NCBI RefSeq assembly: GCF_006345805.1
Contig: NC_042997.1
Coordinates: forward strand, 192,510,001-192,574,000
Length of the DNA stretch: 64,000 nucleotides
Reading direction: 5' to 3'
Source of the DNA: Octopus sinensis
Lineage: Eukaryota
Both the position numbers and the translations under genes were made by a program. Below the pieces are notes generated by a model. It made no database searches. It had not been told where the DNA came from and worked only from the letters and a program-made list of their open reading frames with translations. Below, in pieces: positions 372-57,287 of this stretch. Positions within the stretch are counted from its first letter, which is position 1. The number at the start of each line of letters is the position of its first letter.

Positions 372-431
372 TGGCTGGCTACGCTGCATTGAAAAGGGGC
401 AATACTCCGAAACGCGTCTGTAGCTGCCGGT
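372..431 (+). ncRNA. Type I hammerhead ribozyme, U3-A8 core variant
   Basis: ggctggc-TAC-gctgca-TTGAAAA-gggg(caata)ctcc-GAAAC-GC-GTC-tgtagc-t-gccggtc; stems I, II and III pair; predicted cleavage after C418. Confidence 0.75.
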
Positions 432-1064
432 CAAGTAGTGTGGAGCGACTGACCTCCCTTGTTCGAAGGTTATATGGATACAGTTTGTGTATCAAATAGC
501 TAACTTAAGGCGATGGCCTCATGGAGCTAATAAGCGGACAGCTTTTTTCTTATTTTTATAAGAATGCCATATTAGTATGGCGATAACTATTATTATCATT
601 ATTATTATTATTGACTTGAGTTACTCAACACACACTGATCGAAATTCTCCGCCATCTTTAATCCAAGTAATACTTCTTCCAGCCTGAATAATATATTTAG
701 CTTCAGTAAGACATTTCATAAAATGCTTTTGATACTAGACAGTTTCCTCAGTGTCAACAAATAGATTAATTCCAGTACAATGTGGTCACCCGATAATTTT
801 TCTGCACAAGGTAATCTAATTTGCAACCAGATGAAGCTGTGTGATGATTGAACAACATTTTAAAGAGAAACTGTATAAGGGACGTTTTACTGTCCTGTAC
901 CACCCTTTCAGCAAAGACATTTGAGAAATGTTCATAAACTGTGAATTTCTAGGTAATTTTTTGCGCCTTCATTCGTCTCAACAAACATTGAAAAAGGCAT
1001 TATTCACACAATGGTGGCCTTATGTAAACAGAGGTATTCATCATTTGCCAGAACACTCCTTTAA

Positions 1065-1206
1065 AAGTTAGCGGTTCAGCAAAAGGGACCAATAGAATAA
1101 GTACTAGGCTTACAAAGAATAAGTCCTGGGGTCAATTTCCTTGACTAAAGGCAGTGCTGCAGCATGGCCACAGTCAAATGACTGAAACAAGTAAAAGAGT
1201 AAAAGA
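1065..1206 (+). mobile_element. tRNA-SINE family B, 3' fragment
   Basis: Matches the tail of family B copies (…gcatggccacagtcaaatgactgaaacaagtaaaagag). Confidence 0.85.
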
Positions 1207-1369
1207 TCTATATAATTATCATAAATAATGTAAATAATTATCATAAATGTAACAATTCACAAAGGGTATCACACTTGGCTACTTTTACACCATCCATCTT
1301 TTACTGGATGGTTCCATACAATAACATCATGCACCCAGATTGATATTTCAGTCTTTAATTAATGTTAAA

Positions 1370-1620
1370 GAGCAGGTGGCTCGCTCGCAAGAAAGTTTCT
1401 AAAAACACTTGAAGAAATCTGGCCACCCAGGTCTTGTCGAGGCATAGGCAACCACTGTAAACAGTGTCTTTGTTGTTGTTCACATCCAACAAAACTACCC
1501 GGAGATGTTGGATCCAAGAAGGTTGTCTGTACCTCGATATCCAAACCCTTCAAAAATAACGTTGTCACCATGTCCCCCGATCTGGGCGACTAAAAGATGT
1601 GTCCACTCGGTCACGTTGAT
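1370..1620 (-). pseudogene. Degenerate L1/Tx1-type APE endonuclease fragment
   Basis: Frameshifted translation VQTTFLDP / VVLLDVNNN / FTVVAYASTRPGWPDFFKC / LETFL resembles Tx1 endonuclease. Confidence 0.45.
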
Positions 1621-3504
1621 GGTTGTTACAACAACAATTTGCTCTTAAAAAAGGATCTGAACTGTATAACTTGTCGTGTTCTCTTGCTATAAAATATATT
1701 AAAATATATTCGATATATATATTCTTTTTTTCTTTTACACTTCAAAAAGAAACAAGATTCTCACTCTAATTGATCAATTGCAAAAGATCAATAAACTTGT
1801 TAATAATACGACAATGATATTTTCAAGTTGGATCTTGTCTAATGATTCAGTTCAAAGAAACCTCGTCCGGCTTGAATTAGCCTTCAAATCACTTCAATCT
1901 TAAAAGAAATAGATACACATTGGATAATCTCCTATCTTCTTAAAGGAAAAATATATAAGATAAAGTAGTCTGGGGTACTTGTTTGTTTGTCTACTTATCC
2001 CCCCTCTGTCTCTGTCTCTCTCTAATGGATACTGATCAAGCGAATATATAATGGAGACAACGTAAGCATTCACTACTTCTGACGGCGTTTCTGGGCCAGC
2101 TTCCTTTCAGCTTATTGCTAGATGAGGCTGGCCATTCTGCTCAAAATGTCTTCCTAGTTACAATTCACCTGAAAGTCTGGACTGAACCAGACCTCAAGCA
2201 GCTTAACTGGTCCATGTCCCCAGTAACCATCAGAAAGTCGCATACATTTATTTGAAATTGAGTAGCGCACATGCACGGCCAAGCCTACTAAACATTGATG
2301 TGTGAATGTATTTCGACATCATGGCTTTGCAATCAGGGTCCATCGGACGGCTTTGGTTCCATTGTGTTTTAGGACTGCGCATTTGCAGCTCTACCATGTT
2401 ATTGTCTGAGTCCTGGAAGATAATCAGTACCTGGAGATCAAACCTTTCTGAGACACCACTGCCACATCGCTTCCCAATACAGACCAACTCTAAAAAGAGA
2501 TGAGAACACCTAGTCTCGCTGATGGCGGCCCAGTGGCGTAGCTAAAGTGTGTGCCGCTCAAGACAGCCCTTGAGTTTACCACCCTAATCTGGTCCCAACA
2601 GGCTGCACAGGCTTACACAGCACACCCAAAAGTACCGCATCCATAAAAAGCCACCCAGACAGAACACCCCACGCCCCCATCCTATCCATGCTCCTGTGGT
2701 TACCATATTTGTAATAGTAACTTGAAGTCGTTAACCTTGCTTCCAGTCGACCTCAGTTCACATTTGTAGTGGCACAAGCAGTCAGCGCCATATTGGATGA
2801 GATCTTGCCAGCAGCTGTTGCCATCTCCGAGACTGGAGCGAGATCTTACCTGCATCCATTTGCCATGCATAAGATCACAACGAGGCTCGCGATGGCAAAC
2901 TGGATATAAGGGCCCAACAAACAGATTCTTTCTCTTCTTCACTGCAAGCGCTTGCTGAACACATATATTTGCTGGCTGGGTCTCCAGGCTAGTCCTGTCT
3001 GCACATCGTATCTCCATAGGAAATGGGCCCGCATTAACGGAGACACAACGAGACGTACACAGCTTGAGATGGTCTACTGAGAGCGACACACATCATTTAT
3101 TCTGTGTAACTATGTAACTAAAACTGGTTGTGAATTCACATTTCCACTTGAGACTTCTTTCCTTGCCTGCTGGAGCCTGAAACAACACAAAGAACAATTT
3201 TAAAGGGAGAAGGCGATATTCATCCGATATCATGAACCTTGCTTCCCATTATACATTCATTAGTGCGACATATTTTACGTTGGTCAGAGAGAGGACCAAG
3301 AGATCACTTGTCTTTGTCTCTTCAGTTTATCTTTGTCTCTTGTGTCTCTTCAGCAGTTTAGGAGACAGAATCACTCCTTCTTTGAAAATCATTTCCAAAA
3401 TGTCTTTCTTGTTTTTGCAGAGATGTCCGGTGTCAAAGGGATATTTTTTTTATTGCTGCTTACAAAAATTATACAAGGTCACTCCCGACCTGAAAAGTCA
3501 AATA

Positions 3505-4784
3505 GGATTTTTTCGGTTTGAACGGCAGGTTTTTCTAGCGGTGTCATATAAAATTGTCACCCATAATTATGACCCTAGTATCGATTTATTGCATTTCAAT
3601 CTGTTATAGAGTTAGGGTTAGGGTTACGGGTGGGGGAAGGGTATCTTTTTTTCTTCAGAAATGTAAATAAACCCAAGATCTTTTCGGTTTGAACGGCAGT
3701 TTTTTAAAATAATTTCCACGTAACTAAACACTTTTAAACTTCGTATACTGGTAGAATGTGTTTATAAAACATCTTTTTCTCTTGGCTTTATTGAGAAAAT
3801 TCTATAGTTTGTAAGATCTTTGTTGTGTTTTTTCTTCAATTTCTGCAATTTCAACTAATCAATGACGTCTATTGAGGTGAAAACATTCTGTGCCGTATGA
3901 ATATGTCCCTCGTTTAAGTAACAGATTGGGTTTAGGATTTTTTCGGTTTGAACGGCAGGTTTTTCTAGCGGTGTCATATAAAATTGTCACCCATAATTAT
4001 GACCCTAGTATCGATTTATTGCATTTCAATCTGTTATAGAGTTAGGGTTAGGGTTACGGGTGGGGGAAGGGTATCTTTTTTTCTTCAGAAATGTAAATAA
4101 ACCCAAGATCTTTTCGGTTTGAACGGCAGTTTTTTAAAATAATTTCCACGTAACTAAACACTTTTAAACTTCGTATACTGGTAGAATGTGTTTATAAAAC
4201 ATCTTTTTCTCTTGGCTTTATTGAGAAAATTCTATAGTTTGTAAGATCTTTGTTGTGTTTTTTCTTCAATTTCTGCAATTTCAACTAATCAATGACGTCT
4301 ATTGAGGTGAAAACATTCTGTGCCGTATGAATATGTCCCTCGTTTAAGTAACAGATTGGGTTTAGGATTTTTTCGGTTTGAACGGCAGTTTTTAACATAA
4401 TTTCTAGGTAACTAAAGAATTTTAAACTTCGTATACTGATAGAATGTGTTTATAAAACATCTTTTTCTCTTGGCTTTATTGAGAAAATTCTATAGTTTGT
4501 AAGATATTTGTTGTTTTTTTCTTCAATTTCTGCAATTTCAACCAATCACTGACGTCTATTGAGGTAAAAAACATTCTGTGCCGTATGAATATGTCCATCG
4601 TTTAAGAAACAGATTGGGTTTATTTACATTTGTGAAGACAAAAAGATACCCTTCCCCCCAACCCTAACTAACCCTAACCCTAAAATAGATTGAAATGCAA
4701 TAGATCGATACTAGGGTCATAATTATGGGTGACAATTTCATATGACACCGCTAGAAAAAACTGCTGTTCAAACCGAAAAGATCC
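3505..4784. mobile_element. Rearranged array of a Merlin-like MITE: two 430-bp half-inverted units plus one full reverse copy
   Basis: TIR motif RGATYTTTTCGGTTTGAACGGCAG starts at 3505, 3676, 3935, 4106 and 4365 and closes in inverted form at 4784; homologous to the intact copy 30159-30598. Confidence 0.9.
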
Positions 4785-56222: not shown

Positions 56223-56245
56223 GAAGTAAAATGTTCCCAATCCGG

Positions 56246-56460
56246 AAGGCGTCGAGATGGCAGAATCGTTAGCACACCGGGCGAAGTGCTTAGCAGTATT
56301 TCGTTCGTCTTTACGCTCTGAGTTCAAATACCACCGAGGTCGACTTTGCCTTTCATCCTTTTGGGATCGATAAAATAAGTACCAGTTGCATACTGAGGTC
56401 GATGTAATCTACTTAGCCCCTCCCCCGCACTTGCTGGTCTTGTGCAAAAATTTGAAACCA
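56246..56460 (+). mobile_element. SINE family A (alternative tail)
   Basis: Family head and core. Confidence 0.85.
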
Positions 56461-56958
56461 AAATGTCTTCTTGAAGGCGTTCATTCTTCCTTATACGTGC
56501 CTTTTCCTTATTTAAGATTCTAGTGGGTGATTTAAGGAACATTTAGTTGCTAATTCTTGGAAGCTGAGCGTTTACTGAAGACATTTTTCATCTGTGTATA
56601 TTATTCATGAATGCTGGGAATCGATTTAAAAAACAAAAAAAAAACAATGGGAATCCAAAGCTGCGACGTAAATATATATGTATGTATGTATATATATATA
56701 TATATATATATATATATATATATATATATATATATATATATATATATATATAGCAATAATAATTCTCTAAATGAGATATAGACAGTAACTGCTTCATAAC
56801 ATAAGGGACTAAAGCCATCTGAATATGCTAGGGACAGGGCAGGGTGGTGTTACTGTTGCATTTAGCCCAGGCGAACATCAACGTCGCCAGATAGGCTTGA
56901 CACCATCACGGTGTCCTTTATCCTGCAAGGGAGATAATCCCCGATGAAGCGGAAACTA

Positions 56959-57004
56959 CACACGGACCTAGGTTTCAAGGTGTATTGCCTATCATCAACG
57001 TGTG
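56959..57004 (-). ncRNA. Type I hammerhead ribozyme (C3U)
   Basis: cacacg-TTGATGA-t-agg(caataca)cct-t-GAAAC-CTAG-GTC-cgtgtg. Confidence 0.8.
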
Positions 57005-57241
57005 GTAGGCCCCCGCTTCCTCGACGAACAACCCACTCTGCAGGATATTTATATATAGATTTTCAAGCAAAATACATTTGCTGATTTCGAAAATCTGTTC
57101 GACAGCAATAATAATTCTCTAAATGAGATATAGACAGTAACTGCTCCATAACATAAGGGACTAAAGCCATCTGAATATGGCTAGGGACAGGGCAGGGTGG
57201 TGGGGGTGTTACTGTTGTTCGTCGAGGAAGCGGGGGCCTAC

Positions 57242-57287
57242 CACACGTTGATGATAGGCAATACACCTTGAAACCTAGGTCCGTGTG
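57242..57287 (+). ncRNA. Type I hammerhead ribozyme (C3U)
   Basis: Same motif; stem I extends as gaagcgggggcc-TAC / T-ggtttccgcttc. Confidence 0.8.

Follow-up and report, generated by a model that had tools for sequence, protein, structure and literature searches.

Putative non-LTR retrozymes with type I hammerhead motifs and a Penelope-type insertion footprint in an octopus genome

Metazoan non-LTR retrozymes have been described from coral, from the mussel Mytilus (350-390 bp) and from the axolotl (330/350 bp) (Cervera and de la Pena 2020, PMC7229834), and those of further invertebrates are shown in the supplement of the same report. That report terms Penelope-like elements (PLEs) a strong candidate for moving animal retrozymes, and a study of vertebrate retrozymes (bioRxiv 10.64898/2026.07.22.740005), which samples no mollusc and uses canonical and minimal hammerhead descriptors, lists the mobilisation mechanism as open. 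The identity of the autonomous element that mobilises them, and the role of a circle as template, have so far been argued from co-occurrence. PLE insertions combine a tail, termed specific to PLEs, with an inverted arm (PMC8557442), and an anole PLE initiates reverse transcription in vitro at two internal sites at AT-rich nicks (PMC11167929). As regards the ribozyme, U3-A8 core covariation has been reported for ~1,300 Schistosoma motifs, the minimal hammerheads of Cercyon PLEs (PMC4209133), the nucleotides of the loop 1-loop 2 tertiary contact are treated in PMC6155905, and the giant squid genome report gives 235 Rfam hammerhead matches (PMC6962438). A preliminary description of the 64-kb stretch of octopus DNA analysed here (the window) had assigned its hammerheads to a family not recognised from octopus. 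The kind is already known, however, since by their sequence these elements appear to be non-LTR retrozymes, which include those of a mollusc (PMC7229834).

Hammerheads and insertions in the window

Five insertions in the window together carry six type I hammerhead motifs in full and two more as half-copies. The complete motifs lie where the preliminary description had placed hammerheads (373-432, +; 25277-25340, +; 25726-25789, +; 54029-53967, -; 57014-56951, -; 57232-57295, +), and their loop II CAATA, GUC triplet and stem III palindromes (ACGCGT, ACATGCATGT, ACCCGGGT, ACCTAGGT) read as it had claimed. Its five loci correspond to five insertion events, in that the pair at 25288/25737 is one insertion duplicated along with its microsatellite at a 449-bp period, and the pair at 56959/57242 represents two arms of one insertion. 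The half-copy near 47830 is present, but is really two half motifs that face each other at ~47828/47832 and begin inside stem II. TAC beside proximal stem I was found at 372, 25288/25737 and 56959/57242, the 53975 copy having lost its 5' side to inversion; as a general rule it fails, being family-specific, and the position reads TGC or TGT in other superfamily members, with the U alone kept.

A structure-aware scan of the window returned four motifs, whereas 40 block-wise dinucleotide shuffles averaged 0.05 motifs each, none with CAATA; in its strict form the scan overlooked the 56959/57242 pair. The Rfam gathering score (Hammerhead_1, RF00163) was reached by no window motif, no hammerhead was among the best 150 of 172 matches at E<=1 in an Rfam scan of the window, and two 150-160-nt stretches gave no Rfam hammerhead match even at E 10. 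Genome-wide, 7 of 74 scored candidates passed gathering, none of them at a motif of this superfamily. A candidate at 44030 matches a loose pattern, but it lacks stem I, was missed by the covariance model and the unit profile, and was rejected, as were candidates at 53578, 55206 and 5320 on the same grounds.

The five insertions can be read against two internal unit positions, site 1 and site 2, at which arms end. That of family A (locus L071) comprises a short inverted arm at 290..316 (-; unit positions 211-237), whose 3' end is at site 2, and a main arm at 316..594 (+) that runs from unit position 260 across the cleavage junction to site 1 (position 176), ends in a (TTA)n run and is 100% identical to other young copies; its hammerhead (373..432, +) has the core UUGAAAA (U3-A8) at 389-395, loop II CAAUA at 400-404, stem III ACGCGU and a predicted cut at 418/419. 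The family C insertion has a short inverted arm at 25228..25256 (-), with its 3' end at site 1 and abutting a (CATA)n run, and a main arm at 25260..25489 (+), ~92% identical to other copies, whose hammerhead (25277-25340) shows the core CUGAUGA, a C.A at the base of stem II, stem III ACAUGCAUGU and a predicted cut at 25326/25327. Joined to this arm is an 83-nt piece (25476..25558, +) similar to the 3' terminus of an old Penelope-like family, with 15 other genomic matches at 79-93%, one of them ~700 nt behind a PLE ORF remnant; the local tandem duplicate, microsatellite included, occupies 25562..26095 (+) with its hammerhead at 25726-25789.

The family B (B1b-like) insertion consists of an arm at 47640..47828 (-), which ends at site 1, has its 5' end inside stem II and keeps no more of the hammerhead than its GAAA-stem III-GUC half, and an opposite arm at 47832..48065 (+), likewise with half a hammerhead, which ends at site 2 in (TA)n. 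In family D the hammerhead arm (53790..54020, -) carries the core CUGAUGA at 54013-54007, stem III ACCCGGGU and a predicted cut at 53981/53980, distal stem I being lost at the inversion point, and the opposite arm (54022..54200, +), without a hammerhead, ends at site 2 in (TA)n. Family B1 is represented by a minus arm (56752..57217, -), which begins at unit position 110, crosses the junction and ends at site 2 (223), and a plus arm (57214..57460, +), which runs from position 295 to site 1 (179), with (TA)n flanks; both hammerheads have the core UUGAUGA (U3.G8), the former (57014-56951) with U.U at the base of stem II and stem III ACCUAGGU, the latter (57232-57295) with a predicted cut at 57281/57282. 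The canonical CUGAUGA is thus found in only two of the four window cores.

Apart from microsatellite frames, no ORF of at least 100 aa overlies the window elements, and the locus offers no hint of a host function. Five insertions in 64 kb compare with three in 200 kb of neighbouring sequence and two in 200 kb of arbitrary stretches, a mild excess in a window that is itself a selected one, (TA)n density being equal in the window and the comparison stretches. LINE and Helitron-like remnants also occur, such as a microsatellite-flanked RLE-type fragment at 62213-63394.

Repeat families and the ribozyme core

The motifs had been described as one diverged family; five or more separate repeat families (A-E) can be told apart, with 53-68% identity between them. 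The idea of one radiating group survives, in that the motif-bearing units are homologous over their whole length. Four units measure 362, 362, 355 and 348 nt, and share an architecture in which the hammerhead sits at the end of a ~50-bp rod followed by several hairpins; GC is 41-46%, and the predicted circular fold gives z of -4.6 to -6.5 in all four (40 shuffles each). Exact matches to core plus CAATA number 4,875 genome-wide, against 65 in a reversed control, 27 of 30 fetched matches were superfamily members, and a first look gave 880-3,349 candidates per family. Copies are 98-100% identical in families A and B and ~92% in C and D. Head-to-tail units within the 150-450-bp range of retrozymes form arrays of up to nine, each unit with a canonical type I hammerhead, and are non-coding and without LTRs; target-site duplications, >4 bp in retrozymes when present, are not discernible in the mostly (TA)n flanks. 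On these features the superfamily would represent non-LTR retrozymes, large in number and still spreading. A 392-nt contig with a 362-nt period closes on itself in two of four sequencing runs (type guessed RNA), a result expected from a tandem array no less than from a circle.

The covariation expected from the preliminary description was found in an alignment of 19 representatives, among which related rows inflate the shuffle controls: 17 of 19 pairs show double changes and 89.6% are paired, with 0/500 in shuffles and 28-44% in slid controls. Three helices with an open helix I are backed by this covariation, the first stem II pair being mismatched in 11 of 19. The core follows (C/U)UGAN(G/A)A ... 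GAAA ... UH with a 3-8 pair, two window families deviating from CUGANGA, and U4, G5, A6, A9, G12, A13, A14, A15.1, U16.1 and C17 are invariant. The loop 1 U is kept in at least 90%, and no variation is seen at a U on the opposite strand or at one A of loop II; as in Schistosoma Sm-alpha the fold is of type I with putative loop 1-loop 2 contact letters, and the loop letters appear to match the tertiary-contact letters of that ribozyme. The stem III palindrome also covaries, as expected for a dimer-capable ribozyme, and its inner pairs, which require two hammerheads to form, show changes on both sides (CCCGGG/CTCGAG/CTGCAG, CCTAGG/CCATGG). The rod duplex reaches -52 kcal/mol when cognate versus -27 across families. 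Conserved letters and covariation fit what selection for an active ribozyme able to dimerise would leave behind, and partly support it. The long-term selection for catalysis proposed earlier is borne out to this extent by covariation and near-invariant contact letters; with catalysis predicted only, it would act on source lineages rather than on the window copies, because the 25288 copy carries a stem I mismatch.

Core position 3-8, whose variants, like the insertion anatomy, had been missed earlier, is U3-A8 in 2,492 of the genome-wide core-plus-CAATA matches, C3-G8 in 1,981 (by subtraction), U.G in 239 and C.A in 163, and thus covaries, with 92% Watson-Crick pairing; it is paired in 18 of 19 representatives, and U3-A8 occupies two separate clades of a 16-row tree. 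Since half of the hammerheads are U3-A8 and no window motif is seen by Rfam, standard descriptors would undercount such hammerheads. One older subfamily (E), in a sample picked for its C3.A8 state, seems to have multiplied although that core is unpaired. As the young B1 family, too, departs from a paired core, combining U3.G8 with U.U at the base of stem II, full catalysis may not be needed for spread.

Insertion footprint, partner and template

Within (TA)n tracts, copies form a partial tandem joined to an inverted arm. Each family has two fixed internal 3' ends, and each arm stops at a different one of them. Opposite sites were found on the two arms in 18/18 two-armed insertions of family A, 16/17 of B and 6/8 of C, with 3' ends at unit positions 172-179/235-239 in A, 179/219-223 in B and 166-175/223-232 in C; duplicates were removed by hand from these counts, and family D was left out, its positions having been measured on a unit with a deletion. 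Over 47 distinct insertions of A and B, 5' ends fall at scattered positions, and arms run through the cleavage junction, rarely stopping there (B, 0/57 arm rows; A, 2/38, one ambiguous). The two fixed ends match the two-site internal priming (PMC11167929) behind the Penelope 'tail' (PMC8557442), and the inverted 5'-truncated arm and microsatellite target of PLE insertions are present too; at 43-62 nt, the tails of these units exceed the 30-40 bp on record for PLEs. Because the copies bear insertion marks typical of Penelope retrotransposons, Penelope is the element class of the likely partner.

Candidate partners reside in the genome as Neptune-type RT+GIY-YIG ORFs of 775-781 aa, one family of which has copies 98-100% identical that end in (TA)n with an optional tail of their own; 150 of 5,029 GIY-YIG candidates were scored. 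Neither unit sequences nor the unit profile revealed homology to PLE termini in 62 PLE loci, where only nested independent copies were met, and the sampled termini bear minimal, not canonical, hammerheads. No RT+GIY-YIG ORF lies within the elements; a true PLE protein fragment occurs in 4 of 132 retrozyme loci, in none contiguous with a unit, and 28 further matches there reflect a SINE-derived stretch of one query. To the eye, in an uncounted comparison, the site-2 hairpin (CUC-N5-GAG, 13 nt before the end) resembles the tail of the youngest Neptune family. As none of the PLE termini checked at these 62 loci is homologous to the unit, we infer mobilisation in trans.

We therefore hold it likely that the motifs are type I hammerheads of non-LTR retrozymes whose RNA would self-cleave as a double hammerhead into unit lengths, be re-joined, and be copied into (TA)n sites in trans by a PLE reverse transcriptase-endonuclease. 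The partner would be one of the resident Neptune-type families, its protein presumably nicking both target strands and priming two cDNAs at two internal sites, as the anole element does in vitro, and the ribozyme would cleave in vivo. The template would have intact junctions, either as a circle, which we somewhat favour, or as an uncleaved multimer. Here the evidence is mixed: at 5 of 22 family A loci a private variant is common to all units covering it, and at 4 of 22 (L088, L187, L198, L199) units differ block-wise within one arm. Spread through PLE retrotransposition of uncleaved linear multimers, with no circle and the hammerhead kept otherwise or intermittently, differs from the preferred explanation in the template alone and is in our judgement unlikely. 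The free crossing of the junction, the block-wise differences and the probable C3.A8 subfamily suit it, as do the anole PLE, which inserts uncleaved RNA in vitro and whose hammerhead mutants leave insertion unaffected (PMC11167929), and the eight of nine Xenopus dimers that did not cleave (10.64898/2026.07.22.740005). It is opposed by the retention of core and tertiary-contact letters, 3-8 pairing and dimer palindrome across families so diverged, by the fact that most insertions contain fewer than two full units, so that long linear sources should be rare, and by the abundance of related retrozymes as circles (PMC7229834).

Were the units pseudo-LTRs (5'-truncated ends) of unsampled autonomous PLEs moved in cis, no separate non-autonomous RNA would be needed. 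The shared footprint, the small fraction of GIY-YIG candidates scored, and the homology of 24 of 57 Xenopus retrozyme families to known elements, 21 being PLE termini (10.64898/2026.07.22.740005), are compatible with this improbable origin; against it, arms pass from unit end directly into the next unit, up to nine times and never into an ORF, 5' ends are scattered, PLE protein fragments are rare and detached, and the sampled PLE termini carry minimal hammerheads. Still less probable are viroid-like circles with RNA-to-RNA replication as well, which PLE reverse transcriptase would write into the genome only secondarily, an idea already raised for retrozymes (PMC4209133, PMC7229834) and in keeping with the rod-plus-branched fold, its z scores and a fast sequence turnover with structure kept; the young families, 98-100% identical over dozens of insertions, are unlike an RNA quasispecies, and motif scans found hammerheads in one polarity only. 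Unequal crossover or 3'-end-primed LINE insertion does not make two-armed insertions with two fixed internal ends. Satellite-like amplification or LINE (e.g. the RLE-type fragment) or Helitron mobilisation, to which the tandem arrays (one, L198, alternating two unit types), the DNA-level duplication at 25288/25737 and the LINE and Helitron-like remnants might point, is most improbable and already largely refuted by the end mapping of dispersed two-site, two-armed insertions with a tail called PLE-specific (PMC8557442); neither poly(A) nor a 3' end in common with LINEs was seen.

Returning to PLE-mobilised retrozymes, a fuller reading, possible rather than probable, is that an old independent lineage of circular ribozyme RNA without pseudo-LTR homology parasitises the Penelope machinery, whose protein would recognise a conserved hairpin domain, prime at each of two fixed sites of a single unit circle and roll around it, while the core would have walked between C3-G8 and U3-A8 more than once via mobile wobble or mismatch states. 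If so, the genome holds intact Neptune RT-EN and near-identical templates as a matched young pair with which retrozyme transposition could be reconstituted, along with a natural record of how a ribozyme active site evolved by compensatory change. Three families of copies themselves carry the PLE two-site priming footprint beside young intact PLE ORFs, which makes the question of mobilising element and template directly testable in vitro.

Comparison with known systems

Like metazoan retrozymes, the octopus elements have one canonical type I hammerhead per short non-coding unit, GC below 50%, head-to-tail copies, a self-paired predicted circle, a weak palindromic stem III and PLEs with minimal hammerheads in the same genome, and one family shares the U.U at the base of stem II with axolotl Amex2 (PMC7229834). 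They differ from those described there in that half of their cores are U3-A8, in keeping the tertiary-contact letters that mussel retrozymes mostly lack and, relative to the main-text description, in their mostly short two-armed inversions, two fixed internal ends and no visible target-site duplication; the metazoan elements are expressed as circles, whereas circles of the octopus units are a prediction. No description of this octopus family was found in the openly accessible literature.

Partial tandems with an inverted 5'-truncated arm, two 3' ends, (TA)n targets and a presumed RT start 100-240 nt downstream of a hammerhead are shared with PLE insertions (PMC8557442, PMC11167929); unlike PLEs, the octopus units have no ORF, a canonical rather than minimal hammerhead and a longer tail, and unlike pseudo-LTR derivatives they have no homology to the sampled resident PLE termini. 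As with vertebrate retrozymes, for which mobilisation in trans is proposed, they co-occur with PLEs; that proposal is argued from co-distribution and pseudo-LTR homology, whereas the octopus link is a mechanistic footprint without such homology (10.64898/2026.07.22.740005). In Schistosoma, U3-A8 belongs to minimal motifs of Cercyon PLEs, whereas here it is found in canonical retrozyme hammerheads of at least two clades, accompanied, unlike in Schistosoma, by a U3.G8 family that has amplified and by what is probably a C3.A8 family (PMC4209133). For a known kind of element, the footprints are of unusual clarity here, and half of the copies show an unusual core variant.

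The retrozyme superfamily

Each of the six complete and two half hammerhead motifs in the window is part of a repeat dispersed in the genome (2.72 Gb). Family A (window 372) gave 880 first-look candidates, family B (57242 and 47830) 1,400, family C (25288) 2,288 and family D (53975) 3,349; judged on the 40 candidates scored per search, the best copies of A are 98-100% identical, those of B likewise 98-100%, and those of C and D ~92%. Cut to cut, one unit measures 362 nt (A and subgroup B1), 355 nt (subgroup B1b and C) or 348 nt (subgroup D2), and units form head-to-tail arrays of up to nine. 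The families align over all 250 nt examined, with 53-68% identity between them. The exact core plus CAATA pattern has 4,875 genome matches versus 65 for a reversed control, and 27 of the first 30 matches retrieved are superfamily members. Predicted circular folds of four units share one shape, a hammerhead atop a ~50-bp rod, which is a lengthened stem I and leads into five or six hairpins (fold z -4.6 to -6.5). An AT-rich, TATA-like stretch lies ~60 nt before the core, just before the rod, at the same place in families A-D, and could possibly serve as an internal promoter.

The six complete and two half hammerhead motifs lie where the preliminary description placed them, and their CAATA loops, GUC triplets and four stem III palindromes are present as it reported; overlooked there were the cores UUGAAAA at 372 (U3-A8) and UUGAUGA at 56959/57242 (U3.G8). 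A structure-aware scan, which missed the 56959/57242 pair, found four motifs in the window, against 0.05 on average in each of 40 shuffled versions. Rfam Hammerhead_1 matched none of the window motifs. A custom covariance model matched all six complete ones at 45-73 bits, scores that are high partly by construction, the 19 genomic relatives behind the model including near-identical relatives of the window copies. It also matched a decayed seventh hammerhead-like motif at 38049-38111 (+ strand; UUGAUGA core, GUU triplet, 32 bits) that is without the downstream unit domain, the next match scoring 13 bits. Elsewhere in the genome a different hammerhead-bearing repeat (loci L210 and L213-L216), whose core is CUGAAGA and whose spacing in one pair is 431 bp, passes Rfam Hammerhead_1 and is by profile unrelated to the superfamily.

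Other elements lie nearby: a tRNA-like sequence at 56151-56222 (- strand; 45.5 bits, above the Rfam gathering score); two short frames at 57898-58604 (- strand), presumably Helitron Rep/helicase remnants by their motifs, for which a Pfam search gave no match; and, behind a long (AAT)n run, a 393-aa fragment from the C-terminal end of a non-LTR element at 62213-63394 (+ strand; a retrotransposon remnant), with a zinc-binding motif, a weak zf-RVT match and what we take to be restriction-like endonuclease-type motifs.

Insertion footprint and mobilisation

Copies mostly sit in (TA)n. Their 5' ends are scattered, but in each of the three families covered by the end counts the 3' ends lie at two fixed internal positions: 172-179 and 235-239 nt after the cut in A, 179 and 219-223 nt in B, and 166-175 and 223-232 nt in C. 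Many insertions consist of two inverted arms ending at opposite sites, as in 16 of 17 cases in family B (24 distinct insertions from 31 loci), 10/10 with both ends visible in family A (23 distinct from 28 loci), 8/8 in a further A set, and 6/8 in family C. All five window insertions are built in this way, except that the family C main arm at 25288 runs straight into a piece (25476-25558) that looks like the 3' end of an old Penelope-like element (PLE) family. This piece may be a nested insertion, or it may mark a switch of template between the RNAs of a retrozyme and a PLE.

Arms read through the cleavage junction up to eight times, and hardly any arm rows start there (0/57 in B, 2/38 in A), so the insertion template had joined cleavage junctions. 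On a possibly circular template the evidence from 22 family A loci is mixed: five have a private variant common to all units covering it, which in two of them spans both arms (e.g. L087, L204); four have block-wise unit differences within one arm, and the remainder are uninformative. In an 8-unit family A array (L198, G000:C1:28191500-28197500) two unit types alternate over six units, the boundary between types coinciding with the cleavage site. Either a dimeric circle template or DNA-level dimer amplification would account for this alternation.

PMC8557442 describes as PLE hallmarks a 5'-truncated inverted arm, a tail on one side of the insertion and a bias towards (TA)n. PMC11167929 showed that the tail corresponds to the stretch separating two internal sites at which RT starts once both strands of AT-rich DNA have been nicked. 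A profile search of 62 PLE loci found no PLE terminus homologous to the retrozyme unit, and the four retrozyme copies in these loci are separate nested insertions. From this PLE-like footprint without shared sequence, we infer that the retrozymes would be mobilised in trans by a PLE.

Candidate partners are present. A search for GIY-YIG elements gave 5,029 candidates, of which 150 were scored; these elements include RT+GIY-YIG ORFs of 775-781 aa with a cysteine linker, which we take from their motifs to be of the Neptune type; one such family is 98-100% identical between copies. Ends of these elements lie in (TA)n, with an optional tail and minimal hammerheads, often U3-A8 too. In the youngest Neptune-type family, the 3' UTR holds four to five repeats (L122 4317-5200; G000:C3:65732400-65738400) that contain the motifs GATTGG (CCAAT box) and TGATGACGTC (CRE-like) and are followed by TATAAAA, probably the promoter of the PLE pseudo-LTR terminus (pLTR).

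Covariation and selection on the ribozyme

The preliminary description had proposed long-term selection for catalysis, and the helices do covary. In a MAFFT alignment of 19 representatives, two-sided changes occur in 17 of 19 named pairs, and 89.6% of cells are paired, a level reached by 0/500 shuffles (slid partners, 28-44%); the shuffle controls are inflated by relatedness of rows, but the changes nonetheless fall between deep families. With two downstream hairpins included, 24 of 29 pairs change on both sides. Rod halves pair at -52 kcal/mol with their cognates and -27 across families, the cognate being best in 11 of 16 rows. Of the TAC proposed as a tertiary-contact motif, the loop 1 U is kept and the remaining letters are not; the opposite U and one loop II A are also kept across representatives.

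Stem III is perfectly palindromic in 13 of 16 representatives. Its inner pairs vary in both partners (CCCGGG, CTCGAG, CTGCAG; CCTAGG, CCATGG) and are too close together to form within a monomer, which points to the double-hammerhead mode, described in PMC4209133 for motifs with weak helix III.

Genome-wide, the core 3-8 pair is U-A in 2,492 copies, C-G in 1,981 (by subtraction), U.G in 239 and C.A in 163, counts of copies and not of independent events. In a 16-row tree U-A is found in two distinct clades, and U.G lies nested within one of these. Minimal PLE motifs of Schistosoma are already known to have U3-A8 (PMC4209133, the sole report found in a literature search on such hammerheads). Seventeen regions chosen for C.A, taken together with two U.G motifs, are mostly one older subfamily, E (L257-L276), whose copies are 65-90% alike and, in this sample selected for C.A, frequently have unpaired C3.A8 cores. 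E-like motifs turn up far more often among the C.A matches than among the U.G ones, so subfamily E is likely to have spread while its core was unpaired, which would count against strict selection.

Relation to known systems

By testable features of its sequence, the superfamily is classed as a non-LTR retrozyme group. The unit and fold description of non-LTR retrozymes in PMC7229834, which gives mussel units of 350-390 bp, fits it. The superfamily inserts as PLEs do, but homology to sampled pLTRs was not found. A 2026 preprint (10.64898/2026.07.22.740005) already proposes in its account of vertebrates that retrozymes are non-autonomous PLE derivatives. In the literature searched, which took in neither Repbase nor subscription-only papers nor one pertinent supplement, no description was found of the octopus family or of a two-site footprint in retrozymes. 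The superfamily is real and explained, and it adds to these systems a mechanistic insertion footprint and core covariation.
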